Source: Gallionella sp. | GTDB taxonomy: Bacteria > Pseudomonadota > Gammaproteobacteria > Burkholderiales > Gallionellaceae | Direction of reading: 5' to 3' | NCBI GenBank assembly: GCA_039923775.1 | Contig: JBDTCC010000022.1 | Location: forward strand, 5,649-69,648 | Length of the DNA: 64,000 nucleotides | Shown here: positions 35 to 54,381 of the stretch, piece by piece | How the letters are laid out: every line of letters starts with the position of its first letter | Position numbering within the stretch: position 1 is the stretch's first letter | Notes under the pieces: generated by a model | The model's input: the letters and a program-made list of their open reading frames with translations, nothing else | Databases searched by the model: none | What the model was told of the DNA's origin: nothing | Translations under genes and position numbers: made by a program

Positions 35-3701
<3,667 letters not shown>

Positions 3702-3726
3702 TTAATTCTTTCTTTTTTAACCTTAA

Positions 3727-3742
3727 TGTTTCACGTGAAACA
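3727..3742. promoter_or_regulatory. parS centromere site (ParB binding)
   Basis: Perfect TGTTTCACGTGAAACA, the canonical parS consensus, inside a 24-bp perfect palindrome (3723-3746) between dnaN and gyrB. Confidence 0.93.
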
Positions 3743-3755
3743 TTAAATAGAATTG

Positions 3756-4862
3756 TTATATGCGCATTGGCATAACGACATAACGGAATTCCTGGTTTTC
3801 AGCTGTGGTGATTAAAATACTGCTATTGGGGTCCCCGAACGAAAATACTACCGTTTCACTACTGATATTATTCAAACCATCCATCAGGTAATTAACGTTA
3901 AAGCCTATATCTAAAGCCTCGCCGTGATATTCGGTTTCAATTTCTTCCTGAGCCTCTTCGTGTTCACTGTTGCTGCTGATGATACTAAGATTTTTCTCGG
4001 TCAGGATGAAACGTACACCCCTGAATTTTTCATTGGACAAAATCGCGGCTCGTTGTAGCGCTTGCTGAACCAGAACGCGATTCATATTAAGATGATTACT
4101 GTATTTAGGAATAACCCGATCATAGTCAGGAAATTTTCCATCAATTACTTTGCTTATCAAATAAATTCCGGAAAAAGATACTTTAGCTTGTTGTGCCGTA
4201 AATTCAACTTGAACCGTTTCATCAGTATCAGAAAGTAGCTTGCATAGTTCCGATACCGCTTTGCGTGGAAGAATGATTTCCTGTTTTTCATGATTTCCTT
4301 CAATGATGTTTGCATTGAAGGCTAAACGGTGACCGTCTGTTGCTACAGCTTTTATTTTATTTCCTTCAATAATTAATAAAACGCCATTTAGATAGTACCG
4401 CACATCCTGTTGTGCCATAGCATATTGTACTGATAATAATAACTTTTTAAGTACTGATTGAGCTAGGACAATTTTATTTGCATTTACTAATTGATCGTTT
4501 AATTTCGGAAAATCTTGTGATGGTAATGTTTGCAGTGTAAAACGGCTCTTATTGGTTTTTATCTGAGCTTTATTTTCTTTGGTTTCAATTGATATTTTAC
4601 TTTGATCGGGAAGAATACGAAGGATTTCCTGAAGTTTCTTTCCTCCTACAGTGATACTGGATATTTCTTCCCCATTATTTTTTGCTTCTATTGTGGTCGT
4701 TATTTGTATTTCAAGATCTGTGGCAGTAAAACGAATTCTATCTATTTCTTTTTCAATCAATACATTGGATAAAATCGGCAAGGTTTGTTTACGCTCTACA
4801 ATTCCAATAACTAACTGCAGCGGTTTCAGTATGGTTTCTTTTTCTGTTTTATCAATAAACAT
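3756..4862 (-). CDS. dnaN: DNA polymerase III beta sliding clamp
   Basis: 368 aa: TLPILSN, ATDLE, ATDGHRLA, GKFPDYDRVIP, IGFNVNYL, C-terminal VVMPMRI; sits between dnaA and gyrB. Confidence 0.99.
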   Translation of the reverse strand: MFIDKTEKETILKPLQLVIGIVERKQTLPILSNVLIEKEIDRIRFTATDLEIQITTTIEAKNNGEEISSITVGGKKLQEILRILPDQSKISIETKENKAQIKTNKSRFTLQTLPSQDFPKLNDQLVNANKIVLAQSVLKKLLLSVQYAMAQQDVRYYLNGVLLIIEGNKIKAVATDGHRLAFNANIIEGNHEKQEIILPRKAVSELCKLLSDTDETVQVEFTAQQAKVSFSGIYLISKVIDGKFPDYDRVIPKYSNHLNMNRVLVQQALQRAAILSNEKFRGVRFILTEKNLSIISSNSEHEEAQEEIETEYHGEALDIGFNVNYLMDGLNNISSETVVFSFGDPNSSILITTAENQEFRYVVMPMRI

Positions 4863-5068
4863 ATATATAAATTCCTAATAACACTAATAATGATCGGTAA
4901 TTTTGTTAATAAGTCTTATAAAGACAATTAAAACAATAATATATAAAATTAAAATCTTGCTGATTTGTTGTTGATTAAAAAGAAGATCAATGTTTATAAC
5001 TTTATTTAACTGCCGGTTGTGCTTTTTATGAACATATTATCAACAGCATTTTCACTGTTTTATCCACG
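4863..5068. other. Probable chromosomal replication origin (oriC)
   Basis: Very AT-rich dnaA-dnaN spacer. Four one-mismatch DnaA boxes: 4991-4999 (reverse, TTATAAACA), 5026-5034 TTATGAACA, 5037-5045 TTATCAACA, 5060-5068 TTATCCACG. A 13-mer-like GATCTTCTTTTTA lies on the minus strand at about 4976-4988. Flanked by parS sites. Confidence 0.7.
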
Positions 5069-6415
5069 CAATGTCTGTAATAAAATTTTGTAGTCTGCAT
5101 CTATCGTTGTATCAGATATCCTTAGTAAAGATACCGTTTTACATGCATGAATGACTGTTGAATGATCTTTGCCGCCAAATGAATTTCCAATTTCCGGCAA
5201 ACTTAAAGTAGTCAGCTCCCTGGCTATAGACATGGCTATTTGTCTTGGGCGAGTGAGGTTTCTAGTACGCTTTTTAGATAACAACTCTGCCATTTTAATT
5301 CTGTAATAATCCGCAACTGTCTTTTGGATGTTATCTATAGAAACTAGGCGACTTTGTGCCACCAAAATGTCTTTTAATGATTCTCTCGCTGTATCAACGG
5401 AAATAATACGTTTGTGAAACTTGGCATAAGCTTCAACCCGCTTTAATGCACCCTCGAGTTCACGGACATTTGAATTAACATGCTTTGCTATAAAAAAGGC
5501 GACAGCATCGTTAAGAGAATAGCCGCTAATGGCCGCCTTTTTCAACAAGATCGCAACCCGCATTTCCAGTTCTGGGGGCTCTATTGCTACTGTTAACCCC
5601 CAACCAAAGCGGGATACCAAACGGCTCTCTAACCCTGATATTTCTTTAGGAAATGTATCACTAGTCAGAATAACCTGCTTGTGTGAGTCAACTAATGTAT
5701 TGAATGCGTAAAAGAACTCTTCTTGTGTTTTGGCTTTGCCAGCGAAAAATTGAATATCATCGATCAGCAGCACGTCAAGAGAGTGATAAAACTGCTTGAA
5801 TTCCTCAAACTTATTTGTCTGATAGGCCCGAACAACGTCTGCAACATACCTTTCAGCATGCATGTAAGAAATTTTTGATTGCGGGTTGTTAAGCCGAATT
5901 TGATTACCAATGGCTTGTAATAAGTGAGTTTTACCCAAGCCAACACCACCGTAAACAAACAAAGGGTTGTACGATACCCCTGGTAACCCGGCTACTTGCG
6001 TTGCTGCAGCGAAAGCCAATTGGTTGGCTTTGCCTATTACAAAATTTTCAAATGTCAGGCTGGGGTTCAGCTTACCATAACCCCTAAAGGTTGTTTCGAT
6101 CTTGGGTTTGCTTTCAACCGGAGCAATAGTTTTTTGTGCTTGTGGGGTCTTTGGTGATTTATTTGTTGCGGTGGATTCAAGTATACGAAATTCAAAAGGT
6201 GGGACTGATTTGAATGCCAATCCTGCCTGTCTGCTTATTTCAGGTAAAAAACGTTCCTGAACCAATTTGAGCGTAAAACTATTTGGTGCTGTAAGCACCA
6301 AAGCTCCATTTTCGCTTTTAAGATGCAGCGGCCTTATCCATGAGTTGTATTGTTGTGGCGGCAGGCTCTTTTCAAATGAGCTGAGGCATGAATCCCAAAA
6401 AGAAATGTCCTGCAT
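5060..6415 (-). CDS. dnaA: Chromosomal replication initiator DnaA
   Basis: NPLFVYGGVGLGKTHLL Walker A, LLIDDIQF, SNVRELEGAL, GGKDHSTVIHA. Start placed at ATG 6415 (MQDISFW) rather than 6472 because a promoter -10 lies at 6464-6459. Confidence 0.98.
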   Translation of the reverse strand: MQDISFWDSCLSSFEKSLPPQQYNSWIRPLHLKSENGALVLTAPNSFTLKLVQERFLPEISRQAGLAFKSVPPFEFRILESTATNKSPKTPQAQKTIAPVESKPKIETTFRGYGKLNPSLTFENFVIGKANQLAFAAATQVAGLPGVSYNPLFVYGGVGLGKTHLLQAIGNQIRLNNPQSKISYMHAERYVADVVRAYQTNKFEEFKQFYHSLDVLLIDDIQFFAGKAKTQEEFFYAFNTLVDSHKQVILTSDTFPKEISGLESRLVSRFGWGLTVAIEPPELEMRVAILLKKAAISGYSLNDAVAFFIAKHVNSNVRELEGALKRVEAYAKFHKRIISVDTARESLKDILVAQSRLVSIDNIQKTVADYYRIKMAELLSKKRTRNLTRPRQIAMSIARELTTLSLPEIGNSFGGKDHSTVIHACKTVSLLRISDTTIDADYKILLQTLRG

Positions 6416-17239: not shown

Positions 17240-18781
17240 ATGAAGCTCAACCCATCCGAAATTAGCAATTTAATACGCAGCCGTATCGACAACTTCGAGG
17301 CGCTGACTGAAGCGCGCACCGAAGGAACGGTCGTCAGCGTCACCGATGGTATCGTCCGGGTACACGGACTTTCCGACGTGATGCAGGGTGAAATGCTGGA
17401 GTTCCCCGGTAACACTTTCGGACTCGCGCTTAACCTTGAGCGTGATTCGGTCGGCGCCGTGATTCTGGGTGAATACGAGCATATAACCGAAGGTGACACA
17501 GTCAAATGTACCGGCCGTATTCTGGAAGTGCCTGTGGGCCCCGAGTTGTGCGGTCGTGTCGTGAATGCGCTGGGCCAGCCCATCGATGGCAAGGGTCCGA
17601 TCAACACCAAGATGACCGACAAGATTGAAAAAGTCGCTCCGGGTGTGATTGCGCGTAAATCGGTCGACCAACCCGTGCAAACAGGCTTGAAGTCCATCGA
17701 TTCAATGGTGCCGGTGGGTCGCGGACAACGCGAATTGATCATTGGCGACCGTCAAACGGGTAAAACGGCCGTTGCCGTGGATGCGATCATCAATCAAAAG
17801 GGTCAGAACATGACCTGTGTGTATGTCGCGGTCGGTCAAAAGGCATCCACCGTAGTCAACGTGGTGCGCAAGCTGGAAGAACACGGTGCTCTTGAATATA
17901 CGATCGTGGTTGTTGCAACGGCATCTGATTCGGCGGCGATGCAATTCCTCGCGCCTTATGCTGGTTGTACCATGGGTGAATATTTCCGCGATCGCGGCGA
18001 AGACGCGCTGATCGTTTACGATGACTTGACCAAGCAAGCCTGGGCGTACCGTCAGATATCCTTGCTGTTGCGTCGTCCACCGGGTCGTGAAGCATACCCC
18101 GGTGACGTATTTTACCTGCACTCGCGCCTGCTGGAGCGTGCAGCGCGTGTGAATGCCGACTACGTGGAAGCATTCACCAAGGGCGCAGTAAAAGGAAAGA
18201 CAGGTTCGCTGACCGCTTTACCCATTATTGAGACACAGGCAGGCGACGTTTCTGCTTTCGTCCCTACCAATGTGATTTCCATCACCGACGGACAAATATT
18301 TTTGGAAGCAGATTTGTTCAACGCAGGTATCCGCCCCGCGATCAACGCAGGTATCTCGGTGTCCCGCGTGGGTGGTGCAGCACAGACTAAAGTCATCAAG
18401 AAGCTGGGTGGCGGTGTTCGTCTCGCGCTGGCGCAATACCGCGAGCTGGCTGCTTTCGCACAATTCGCTTCAGATCTGGACGAGGCAACTCGCAAGCAAC
18501 TGGAACGGGGCCGCATGGTTACCGAATTGATGAAGCAGCTGCAATATGCACCTTTGTCTGTAGCTGAAATGGCGGTCACGCTGTTTGCTGTCAATAAAGG
18601 CTACTTCGATGACGTGCCAGTTCCTAAAGCGCTTGCTTTCGAGGCTGTGTTGCACGCTCATCTGAAATCCAGCAACAAGGGCCTGTTGGATACGATTGAA
18701 TCCAGCAAGGACCTGTCAGCTGACAATGAGAAATTGCTGTCTGCAGCGATCGAAAAATTCAAAGCGACAGCTGTTTACTGA
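17240..18781 (+). CDS. atpA: ATP synthase F1 subunit alpha
   Basis: 513 aa: [30 protein letters not shown]. Confidence 0.99.
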
Positions 18782-18789
18782 TAGAACAA

Positions 18790-18898
18790 CTAACCATCTG
18801 ACTAAGCTGCAAAAAACGCAGCAAGTCATTGGTTATGATAAAAAAACTAGCCATCCCACTAAGCAACCAAAAGACGGTTGCCAAGTGGCTGGTTATGA
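18790..18898 (+). repeat. Tandem pair of imperfect palindromic ~50-nt repeats (REP-like hairpins)
   Basis: Copy 1, 18790-18838: CTAACCATCTGACTAAGCTGC-AAAAAAC-GCAGCAAGTCATTGGTTATGA. Copy 2, 18847-18898: CTAGCCATCCCACTAAGCAACC-AAAAGAC-GGTTGCCAAGTGGCTGGTTATGA. The differences between copies preserve base pairing. Confidence 0.88.
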
Positions 18899-18911
18899 GA
18901 CGGGGTGAAAA

Positions 18912-19778
18912 ATGGCCGGCAGTAAAGAGATACGCACCAAGATCAAGAGTGTAGAAAATACACGCAAGATCACGCGCGCCATGGAAATGGTGGCAGCTGC
19001 AAAGATGCGTAAAGCACAGGAACGTATGCACGCGGCCCGCCCTTACGCTGAAAAAATTCGCGCCGTCGCCGCGCATCTATCGCGGGCGAATCCGGAATAC
19101 AAGCATCCATTTCTGGTGAAGCGAGAAGGAATCAAGAATGTCGGCTTGATCGTGGTGACTTCGGATAAAGGATTATGTGGTGGATTAAACACCAACGTAT
19201 TGCGTCTCGCAGTGAGTCGCATGAAATCCTGGGAGAGTGAAGGAAAGGGTCTTCTGATTTGCCCGATTGGCAACAAAGGACTGGGATTTATGAACCGTGT
19301 CGGGGCCAAGGTCAAATCACATCTGACAGGTTTGGGAGACACACCGCATATAGAGAAACTGATCGGTGCGATAAAAGTGATGCTGGATGCTTACATAGCC
19401 GGCGAGATTGATGCGATCCATATCAGCTACAACCATTTCGTCAACACGATGAAACAGGAGCCGTGTGTGGAGCAATTACTGCCGCTAACCGGCGAGCAGA
19501 TGGGAACCGCGGAAGGTAACTGGGACTATATCTACGAGCCGGACGCCAAACAGGTGATTGATGCATTGCTGGTGCGCTATATAGAGTCTCTGGTTTACCA
19601 ATCGGTGGTCGAGAACATGGCCTCCGAACAAAGCTCGCGGATGGTGGCGATGAAAGCCGCATCTGATAATGCGAGAGACGTGATTGCGGATCTCAAGCTG
19701 GTATACAACAAGGCGCGCCAGGCGGCCATTACCCGTGAAATTTCGGAGATAGTCAGCGGCGCAGCGGCAGTTGGTTGA
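18912..19778 (+). CDS. atpG: ATP synthase F1 subunit gamma
   Basis: [42 protein letters not shown]. Confidence 0.99.
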
Positions 19779-52816: not shown

Positions 52817-53320
52817 ATGGCAATTCTGAAAATTTTGCAGTATCCAGATGAGCGTCTGCATAAAGTCGCGAAGAAAGTTGCTCGGATCAACGAAGACACC
52901 CGCAAGCTGGTGCGCAATATGGCACAGACCATGTATGCAGCGCCCGGAGTCGGCCTTGCGGCGACGCAGGTGGACGTGCATGAGCGTGTCATCGTGGTCG
53001 ATATTTCCGAGACGCACGATCAATTAAGGGTGTTCATTAATCCCGAAATCATCGCCAGCAGCGGCACCAGCGATTGCGAGGAAGGCTGTCTGTCGGTGCC
53101 GGGCATTTATGAAACGGTGAGCCGCGCGGAAACAATCACCGTGCGCGCCTTTGATGAAAAGGGTGAAACCTTTACGCTGGATGCCGGGGGATTATTGTCA
53201 GTCTGTATCCAGCATGAAATGGATCACTTGCTTGGCAAGGTGTTTGTCGAATATTTATCCCAGCTCAAGCAGACCCGGATTCGCGCCAAACTTAAGAAGC
53301 GTCTGCGCGAAACCATGTAA
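52817..53320 (+). CDS. def: Peptide deformylase
   Basis: [20 protein letters not shown]. Confidence 0.98.
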
Positions 53321-53442
53321 TTCCAATTCCATTTCATCGGTGAAACTGCGTTGGCTTCCTCGCTCACTCCTTGCCGTGCTATAGCACTGTCTTCGTCATT
53401 CGCTCGTCGCCGCCTTGCTTCACCTTCGAAATGAAATTGGAA
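53321..53442. repeat. ERIC-like palindromic non-autonomous element (~122 bp)
   Basis: Terminal inverted repeats TTCCAATTCCATTTC / GAAATGAAATTGGAA (14 of 15), inner GGTGAA/TTCAC, and ERIC-type subterminal motifs TGCGTTGGCT..TCGCTCA and ATTCGCTCGT.GCCGCCTT around a central GTGCTATAGCAC palindrome. Confidence 0.75.
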
Positions 53443-53451
53443 AAATAACTA

Positions 53452-54381
53452 ATGAAAATTATCTTTGCCGGCACACCACAGTTCGCGGCCAGCGCGCTGG
53501 CCGCGCTGCACAAGGAGCACCACATCGTTGCAGTGCTGACCCAGCCGGACCGTCCCGCGGGAAGAGGCATGCAACTGACGGCCAGTCCGGTGAAGCGGTA
53601 TGCGCTGCAGCACGGGTTGACGGTATTGCAACCCGCCACCTTGAAGACCGGGGAGATACAACAACTGATCGCCGGCCTGGATGCCGATGTGATGGTGGTA
53701 GCCGCTTACGGCTTGATCCTGCCGAAAGCCGTGCTGCAGTTGCCGCGCCATGGTTGCCTGAACATCCATGCATCACTGTTGCCGCGCTGGCGCGGAGCTG
53801 CACCGATACAGCGTGCAATCCTGGCGGGTGACAAAGAAACCGGCATTACCATCATGCAGATGGACGAAGGGCTGGATACCGGCGATATGCTGTTGCGCAA
53901 AACCTGTCCCATCGGGCAAAGCGACACAGCCGAAACCCTGCATGACAAACTGGCCGGACTGGGCGCGGACTGCATACTTGAAGCGTTGCGTCTGCTCAAG
54001 GACAACCAGTTGACGCCGGTCAAACAGGACAATGAGGCCGCGTGTTATGCGGCCAAGTTGCTCAAGGGGGAAGCACAGATCGACTGGGAGCAGGGTGCCC
54101 GCCAGATCGAACGGGCGGTGCGCGCATACAATCCGTTTCCGGTATGCCAAACCATGCTGGATGGCGTAACGATAAAAATCTGGCAGGCCGGTATATTTGC
54201 CGACACGTCCGGTGAACCCGGGAAAGTATTGGCGGCAGACAAGCTTGGCATCACCGTCGCCTGTGGCAAGGGCGCGCTGCGGCTGGAAATACTGCAGCGT
54301 CCCGGGGGCAAGGCGCAACCCGCCGCGCAATTTTTGCAGGCAATGCCGATCGGAATCGGCGATCAATTTTCAAGAAAATAA
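53452..54381 (+). CDS. fmt: Methionyl-tRNA formyltransferase
   Basis: IIFAGTPQFA, TQPDRPAGRG, NIHASLLPRWRGAAPIQRA, LDTGDM. Confidence 0.98.
   Translation: MKIIFAGTPQFAASALAALHKEHHIVAVLTQPDRPAGRGMQLTASPVKRYALQHGLTVLQPATLKTGEIQQLIAGLDADVMVVAAYGLILPKAVLQLPRHGCLNIHASLLPRWRGAAPIQRAILAGDKETGITIMQMDEGLDTGDMLLRKTCPIGQSDTAETLHDKLAGLGADCILEALRLLKDNQLTPVKQDNEAACYAAKLLKGEAQIDWEQGARQIERAVRAYNPFPVCQTMLDGVTIKIWQAGIFADTSGEPGKVLAADKLGITVACGKGALRLEILQRPGGKAQPAAQFLQAMPIGIGDQFSRK

Follow-up and report, generated by a model that had tools for sequence, protein, structure and literature searches.

Two copies of an apparently mobile, REP/RPE-like hairpin element between atpA and atpG in Gallionella sp.

Small palindromic repeats are abundant in bacteria, and the movement of most of them is unexplained. 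The Rickettsia palindromic elements (RPEs), reportedly described by Ogata et al. 2000, are a long-standing case because of their presence within Rickettsia proteins. RPE-4 and RPE-6 are CGTC elements according to the classification of PMC3733652. The E. coli RAYT, when bound to REP, cleaves single-stranded DNA at C^T (the caret marking the junction), with TGCC^TGAT and CC^TAC as preferred sites, and also cuts at C^T in the linker (PMC3333891).

The 64,000-nucleotide stretch of Gallionella sp. DNA analyzed here, referred to as the window, carries two tandem hairpins between atpA and atpG. They belong to a family that makes the question of movement tractable, since its unit is sharply defined and public metagenomes contain many precise filled and empty sites. 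The C^T target of the family fits the published RAYT cleavage chemistry, copies nest at predictable junctions, and those found in frame in NifN, MurE, and PolA of free-living, cultivable iron oxidizers are tractable material. Judging from sequence comparisons, the element is a small mobile DNA hairpin, dispersed in the Gallionellaceae, that inserts precisely at C^T without target duplication. The best explanation of the observations as a whole, and one we consider quite probable, is that the atp operon has received two independent insertions of a small non-autonomous mobile element common in this family of bacteria.

Two hairpin units in the atp operon

Pfam matches give the gene order parB-atpI-B-E-F-H-A-G-D-C. 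The spacer between atpA and atpG and its borders contain the following features.

17240..18781, + strand: atpA, ATP synthase alpha, 513 aa (Pfam ATP-synt_ab, ATP-synt_ab_C, and ATP-synt_ab_N; sequence)
18779-18781, + strand: TGA stop codon of atpA, which is the first three bases of the copy 1 arm (sequence)
18779..18790, + strand: 5' arm of copy 1, TGATAGAACAAC, where the family consensus is TGRTGRAACWAC (family alignment, flank profile)
18791..18835, + strand: hairpin of copy 1, TAACCA/TGGTTA - TGACT/AGTCA - GCTGC/GCAGC with loop AAAAAAC, "TGACT" subtype (fold)
18836..18847, + strand: 5' arm of copy 2, TGATAAAAAAAC (covariance-model hit, family alignment)
18848..18895, + strand: hairpin of copy 2, TAGCCA/TGGTTA (with a G.U pair) - CCACT/AGTGG - GCAACC/GGTTGC with loop AAAAGAC, "CCACT" subtype (fold, alignment)
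18896..18898, + strand: TGA, the putative displaced ancestral stop codon of atpA, on the T side of the C^T target (relatives' contigs)
18912..19778, + strand: atpG, ATP synthase gamma, 288 aa (Pfam ATP-synt, 2.4e-105)

The whole units span 18779-18835 (copy 1, 57 nt) and 18836-18895 (copy 2, 60 nt). The 130-nt spacer (18782-18911) is predicted to fold as RNA into exactly two three-helix hairpins at -41.7 kcal/mol (z = -4.8), and none of 200 shuffled sequences was equally stable. Folded by itself, each copy is also more stable than shuffled sequence (-19.4 kcal/mol and z = -6.1 for copy 1, -22.3 kcal/mol and z = -4.8 for copy 2). The original prediction had described two three-helix hairpins with their loops, compensatory pairs, and 57-nt period, and all of these are present in the sequence and in the RNA folds. 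It located the hairpins correctly but not the starts of the units, which lie 12 nt further upstream, at the arms TGATAGAACAAC and TGATAAAAAAAC. The "constant TATGA tail" that it reported falls outside the element, its "TA" being the final two bases of the outer helix TGGTTA and its "TGA" being the start of the copy 2 arm behind copy 1 and the displaced atpA stop (18896-18898) behind copy 2.

A covariance model hit copy 1 at 18778-18834 (46.7 bits) and copy 2 at 18835-18896 (81.3 bits). Half-motif searches and the covariance model found no third copy in the window, the next hit having 10.8 bits. Rfam gave no hits in the whole window at gathering thresholds, and with permissive settings its best match to the spacer (14.6 bits, E = 5.6) was nowhere near the family threshold. 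No promoter-like or terminator-like site was matched on the + strand of the spacer.

Two other parts of the window deserve mention. A different, larger inverted-repeat element with arms of ~25 nt (TTCCAATTCCATTTCATCGGTGAAAC ... CTTCACCTTCGAAATGAAATTGGAA) lies at 53290-53460 and is also found in loci L002, L080, and L057; the L002 copy carries two arms and two hairpins of the family described here, and the window copy is unoccupied. At 4001-6000, upstream of parB and the atp operon, the GC content is down to 36% and the cumulative GC skew reaches its lowest point, with positive skew from ~6 kb. This region may be a replication origin region or a foreign island.

Close relatives, with flanks about 85-95% identical, have an empty spacer of ~13 nt. 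Their DNA and RNA contigs skip 18780-18898 or 18780-18900, with contig joints at 18779>18899 with "AG" and at 18779>18901 with "AAGG", and read TTTAC-TAG-GACGGGG or TTTACTAAGGCGGGG. Deletion of 18779-18895 in silico leaves TTTAC|TGAGACGGGG (TTTAC-TGA-GACGGGG). Because this deletion restores collinearity with the relatives' empty sites, the two units lie precisely between the final sense codon of atpA and the stop codon that formerly followed it, and the stop codon of atpA is now provided by the copy 1 arm. The two copies have different middle-helix subtypes, and each is closer to copies in other genomes than to the other. This difference in subtype argues for two separate insertions rather than a duplication. 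The two-copy arrangement recurs in another relative, where a predicted protein of 66 aa (P0001, 85% identical) is read across it.

The history of the site was probably as follows. An ancestral ...TAC^TGA took up one copy, whose left end formed a new C^TGAT junction, and the other copy most likely entered there, in what we infer to be this order. Since the unit begins with TGA, a copy inserted just before a stop codon takes over that codon. Both the C^TGAT junction and the arm|hairpin junction WAC^TAG serve again as targets, giving rise to tandem and nested arrays. The supply of stop codons was rejected as a general rule for the family, as ORFs ending at the arm TGA (11 copies) are not enriched relative to the other frames (19 and 8).

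In some relatives with flanks ~95% identical to the window, the tip of the orthologous copy 1 (window positions 18804-18822) is replaced by a longer inner helix with its loop, GCTGTCGC-CCAAAA-GCGACAGC. This suggests that the tip turns over quickly or that another copy has taken the place of this one.

The original prediction had offered, as one of its two readings, a structured RNA controlling atpA versus atpG stoichiometry. Such an RNA, selected at this locus, would set the ratio from within the atp mRNA through processing, stability, or translational coupling. The hairpins are indeed very stable, and they start 9 nt past the stop codon of atpA, with 16 nt between their end and the start of atpG, so that the ribosome-binding region is clear of them. 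With no terminator, co-transcription is expected, and hairpin-bearing contigs occur in metatranscriptomes, a record of presence only as these contigs carry no strand information. In E. coli, REP hairpins within about 15 nt of a stop codon can stabilize upstream mRNA or lower upstream translation. The empty spacers of the close relatives, however, speak against a dedicated function at this locus, as do the occurrence of the hairpin at more than 100 unrelated sites, in both orientations to genes and also inside coding sequences, and the lack of a matching Rfam family. We regard a dedicated regulatory RNA as highly improbable, and the proposal finds no support in the relatives or in the orientation of the copies. 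Under the preferred reading of two insertions, the atp copies would be co-transcribed passengers whose arrival extended a 13-nt spacer to 130 nt. Expression of atpA or atpG might be affected, for instance if the hairpin protects a 3' end or if the terminating ribosome stalls 9 nt ahead of it, and such an effect would be a by-product.

A dispersed family with filled and empty sites

We scanned public genomes, one per species, with the half-degenerate pattern CCATNNNACTAAGCN{8,30}AAGTNNNTGGTTA. It matched at least 119 loci, nearly all in Gallionellaceae assemblies; the labels among the matches listed are Gallionella, Gallionellaceae, Sideroxydans, Ferrigenium, and broader names containing them, with two Thiobacillus. 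These loci hold 128 pattern copies, and all family statistics given below refer to copies picked with this pattern, which was derived from the two window copies. The covariance-model search that had been suggested with the original prediction, using a model built from family copies, gave 134 hits (E<1e-3) in the first 100 loci (706 kb), with only two copies within the window. Many contigs from soil and sediment metagenomes align to the hairpins and then diverge into unrelated flanks. Word depth among these contigs also climbs sharply over the spacer, but since it climbs over the conserved start of atpG as well, the unlike flanks are the stronger evidence for dispersal. The repeat-bearing flanks of the window match Gallionella assemblies at up to 97% identity.

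The possibility that the two hairpins are a local tandem duplication or a chance palindrome belonging to no family would agree with the finding of just two copies in 64 kb. It is refuted by the loci and covariance-model hits elsewhere, and the two copies are of different subtypes with nearer relatives in other genomes; we give it practically no weight. The other reading in the original prediction, a dispersed REP/RPE-like family of mobile palindromes, is borne out by the same counts and by the precise filled and empty sites described below. The prediction could name no family for it, and we too found nothing in Rfam or in the REP literature searched.

When the 42-aa translation of both window copies was used as a peptide query, 47 representatives were found at E<=1e-3, most of them ORFs of 50-240 aa. 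The two short hits examined (P0001 and P0003) come from translation across element arrays, and the two long ones (P0032 and P0038) are low-complexity proteins with no relation to the element. Public Gallionellaceae assemblies therefore probably contain spurious gene calls that stem from the family. For annotation, this means that copies give spurious small ORFs and lengthen or fuse gene calls.

The unit consists of a 12-nt 5' arm (TGRTGRAACWAC) followed by an imperfect hairpin of 42-48 nt (TAGCCA...TGGTTA), for a total of 54, 57, or 60 nt. The consensus of the 128 pattern copies, which share sequence to the left of the hairpin, is (C)TGATGRAACWAC, TAGCCA-TY-NNACT-AA-GC...GC-(C)A-AGTNN-Y-TGGTTA, then T. 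The arm is present in 111 of these copies. The 5' TAG occurs in 119 of them, although the search pattern left it free; it gives a G.T wobble where the other strand would have a C.A mismatch. Unpaired bases are conserved, and the helix cores are variable yet complementary. The middle helix falls into discrete complementary subtypes (CGACT/AGTCG, TGACT/AGTCA, CCACT/AGTGG, and TCACT/AGTGA), and the inner helix is hypervariable, complementary, and of two size classes.

Among 54 gapless copies, pairing is kept in 98.5% of cells, against at most 44% in slid controls. Double changes occupy 101 cells, compared with 32.5 in shuffled alignments, a number reached in none of 500 shuffles. The invariance of the outer helix and of ACT/AGT is set by the search pattern and carries no weight in this covariation. 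The expectation that structure is conserved while sequence varies thus holds across the family, but the covariation is no proof of structural selection, because intrastrand template switching can yield compensatory changes in DNA palindromes. The unpaired pyrimidines that flank the middle helix also co-vary, as T..C or C..T according to subtype, and cannot pair (alignment columns 21 and 55, corresponding to window positions 18798/18829 in copy 1 and 18855/18889 in copy 2, which has C..C). This could be a subfamily linkage or a recognition feature.

To find orthologous empty sites, the flanks of each copy were compared with the other loci by BLAST. Locus L074 is filled and reads gaggaC[TGGTGAAAC...TGGTTA]TGtttgag, and L029 and L054 are empty at gaggaCTGtctgag (gaggaC^TGtctgag). 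Loci L042 and L100 are filled, reading ...C[TGATGG...TGGTTA]TCtccc, and L038 is empty at caatccTCtccc (caatcC^TCtcccgc). At a third orthologous site, L036 is empty (cccaaC^TGctgcg), L103 has an arm and a hairpin, and L118 has the order arm-arm-hairpin-hairpin, the second unit having gone in at the WAC^TAG junction of the first. Because filled and empty sites differ by just the arm and hairpin, these together are the inserted unit. None of the four filled/empty comparisons contains a target-site duplication, and the unit is asymmetric, with the arm at one end only.

Insertion is oriented and takes place between a pyrimidine, mostly C, and T. Of the 111 armed copies, 85% have C and 14% have T immediately to the left of the unit, and 93% have T immediately to its right; since many copies lie in a few host-repeat families, some of these junctions are not independent of each other. 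A left junction of the form Y^TGATG is seen in 99% of copies, and the right junction is A^T. Arrays are head-to-tail and not inverted pairs.

A classical MITE with terminal inverted repeats (TIRs), derived from a DDE insertion sequence such as IS630 or from a Correia-like element, would have the hairpin halves as its TIRs and would duplicate TA. TA does bound the hairpin on both sides (TA-GCCA...TGGT-TA), and the size and copy number are those of a MITE. The empty sites, however, are missing both the 12-nt arm and the hairpin, making the mobile unit asymmetric; no inverted match to the arm exists at the 3' end, insertion is at C^T rather than TA, and nothing is duplicated. A MITE origin is therefore very unlikely. 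Two further identities were rejected. The left-end CTGATGA recalls a hammerhead ribozyme or a box C/D k-turn, yet there is no stem II, GAAA, or box D partner, Rfam gives nothing, and the apparent "closing stem" in the flanks is a host palindrome that had received the element. The ends also do not fit the RYYYAAC or GTTRRRY of an integron attC.

Many copies are associated with other palindromic repeats, in whose loops or at whose foot they sit, and copies also nest in each other. The host repeats are CGTC-tagged ATTCCCGC..GCGGGAAT, GTTCGTCCTGAGC..GTCGAAGGATGAAC, CCCTCTCCCC..GGGGAGAGGG, and GTAG-tagged GATGGGT..ACCCATC. Di Nocera et al. list the CGTC-tagged repeat class for Sideroxydans ES-1 (PMC3733652). 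A second repeat family that opens with the same TGATGAAAC motif as the element, reading CCCCTGATGATGAAACYCGCCATGCCCGTTTCCCTCTCCCCAACC^TCTCCCGCAAGCGGGAGAGGGGGCAAACGAATCGCTACGCGAG, is a favored host of the hairpin. It was seen in L024, L036, L042, L052, L100 (for example at L100:4935-5100), and L103, with an empty copy at L038:657-737, and it also lies in frame in NifN, MoeA-like, and RnfC-like proteins, where it encodes PLPNP...LPxxGEGAN.

The orientation of the element is unrelated to that of neighboring genes: 25 copies are co-directional, 19 are anti-directional, and 29 lie between convergent or divergent genes. A test for replication-strand bias by GC skew gave 62:52, which is not significant (p = 0.40). 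Copies occur on either strand of coding sequences, and by a strict criterion 14 of 88 testable copies (about 16%) are inside continuous long ORFs. The unit has two stop-free frames on the + strand and one on the - strand, and all three are in use within long ORFs. Frame-preserving lengths had been foreseen from the two window copies, and the hairpin length is in fact divisible by three in 110 of 128 copies. Lengths are 3n in 13 of the 14 copies in long ORFs and in 62 of the 74 others. Since copies outside long ORFs are mostly 3n too, this is a property of the family and not only of survivors in genes.

In-frame insertion into proteins, also part of the original prediction, can be seen as extra residues when the hosts are aligned to solved homologues. 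The NifN carries 33 residues (query 187-219) against 3 in Azotobacter vinelandii NifN (160-162). In MurE there are ~50 extra residues between well-aligned halves, whose matches to E. coli MurE end at 254 and resume at 252. An epimerase has ~40 extra residues in a looser comparison with its solved homologue. For PolA, the basis is continuity of the ORF and not an alignment gap: a 1027-aa ORF continues through a reverse-orientation copy (element aa 376-390), with a Klenow match downstream of it whose best stretch is aa 624-1027.

Candidates for the mobilizing enzyme

Clustering of 2744 ORFs from 119 loci identified no recurrent neighbor gene or adjacent transposase, and no IS200-type tnpA adjoins the copies in these loci. 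The original prediction had proposed looking for a linked RAYT. One locus, L104, encodes a RAYT homologue (ORF 3797-4339, minus strand; phmmer E = 8.5e-49 to E. coli RayT) bracketed (3596-4440) by two direct repeats of ~125 bp, in each of which the hairpin occupies the loop of a GTAG repeat. The locus has one more GTAG repeat (3765-3795), which is empty, so two of the three flanking repeats bear hairpins. The ~125-bp direct repeats also duplicate the first seven codons of the RAYT.

If the element were the cognate REP or REPIN of a RAYT, it would be an ordinary member of the REP/RAYT systems. Its imperfect palindrome with conserved mismatches and bulges is of that kind, its C^TGATG left junction equals the 3' side of the preferred E. 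coli RAYT site TGCC^TGAT, GTAG can be read on the opposite strand of about half of the arms, and L104 offers a RAYT flanked by hairpin-bearing repeats. In L104, however, the hairpin sits within the loop of the GTAG repeat and is a guest. Among 80 metagenome RAYT loci, the covariance model found the hairpin in just one, 1 kb from the RAYT, whereas GTAGGATGGGT-like matches (up to 2 mismatches) occur in all 80; in the eight RAYT loci inspected, palindromes of the form GTAGGATGGGT..ACCCATC flank the gene in inverted orientation. The element has no conserved GTAG or CGTC tag 5' of its stem, and its copies are head-to-tail and not inverted pairs. Because one locus in 80 carries the hairpin while the GTAG palindrome flanks the gene, the hairpin is not the cognate repeat of the RAYT sampled. 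The proposed partner has thus not materialized, and we consider a cognate relationship with a RAYT unlikely in general.

A relationship of mechanism is a different matter. The element may move as single-stranded DNA, of which only the + strand would make the full hairpin (by its G.T wobble), and an HUH/Y1-type enzyme, RAYT-like or IS200/IS605-like and supplied in trans, could cut and rejoin it. This reading is based on the absence of duplication, the fixed orientation, the strand asymmetry, the conserved unpaired bases, and the literature on RAYT cleavage at C^T, which can be compared with the left junction C^TGATG and the nested target WAC^TAG. It is weakened by the A^T right junction, by the absence of strand bias, and by the low number of strict GTAG repeats, of which the hairpin loci contain 3 in 0.9 Mb. 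We propose a single-strand HUH/Y1 mechanism in trans only tentatively, as a possibility well short of an even chance. On its other strand, the GTAG repeat cognate to RAYT is often preceded by T, giving TGATGGG (83 of 132).

At least one other Gallionellaceae repeat, CCCTCTCCCC...GGGGAGAGGG, which encodes PLPNP...GEGAN in proteins, starts with the same TGRTGRAAC motif as the arm. A more speculative idea, which we think doubtful, is that TGRTGRAAC could be a third terminal "tag" beside GTAG and CGTC, marking a superfamily of elements with one hairpin that a putative C^T-cutting enzyme would move as single-stranded DNA and that would be selected for 3n lengths and two stop-free frames. If this were true, these lengths and frames would let elements colonize the coding sequence of free-living bacteria.

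Comparison with described repeat systems

Correia elements (NEMIS) of Neisseria and other TIR-type MITEs resemble the Gallionellaceae element in being short, abundant, co-transcribed with neighbors, and present in Betaproteobacteria. Correia elements, however, carry terminal inverted repeats of 26 bp and generate a duplication of their TA target, whereas the element described here is asymmetric and duplicates nothing.

The IS200/IS605 elements and PATEs share with it the lack of duplication, fixed orientation, a short conserved adjoining sequence, an imperfect hairpin with conserved unpaired bases, and strand asymmetry. Like them, it undergoes oriented, duplication-free insertion beside a short conserved target. 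They have a hairpin at each end and encode TnpA or derive from TnpA-encoding elements, whereas here there is one hairpin and no linked tnpA. The Gallionellaceae element also differs from IS200/IS605 in having no detectable replication-strand bias.

REP and BIME sequences with their RAYTs show imperfect hairpins with conserved mismatches, high copy number, G.T pairs in the stem, and subfamilies with complementary stems (PMC3333891, PMC2817692, PMC3733652), all features of the element, whose C^T(GAT) junction resembles the cleavage sites of E. coli RAYT. The tag of a REP, GTAG or CGTC immediately 5' of the stem, is absent: the 5' foot of the hairpin is [C/A/T]TAG within the stem, with WAC before it, and the only GTAG is one that about half of the copies carry 3' of the hairpin on the opposite strand. 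RAYT genes are not flanked by inverted copies of the hairpin, which occurs in just 1 of 80 RAYT loci and forms head-to-tail arrays. At three helices and 42-48 nt plus a 12-nt arm, the element is longer than the 20-40-nt REP palindrome, and unlike REPs it is often inside coding sequences and inside the loops of true GTAG and CGTC repeats.

The RPEs are similar in being small palindromes with frame-preserving lengths and no known transposase, found both between genes and in frame within functional protein genes. In-frame insertion into otherwise intact protein genes, the hallmark of RPEs, is equally a feature of the Gallionellaceae element. RPEs are about 100-150 bp long and belong to obligate intracellular Alphaproteobacteria, whereas the present element has 54-60 nt and belongs to free-living Betaproteobacteria. 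By its description it further differs from RPEs in its asymmetric structure of arm and hairpin and in its defined C^T site without duplication. It is apparently a REP/RPE-like mobile hairpin of an architecture undescribed in Rfam and the papers searched, and one set apart from the RPEs by description.
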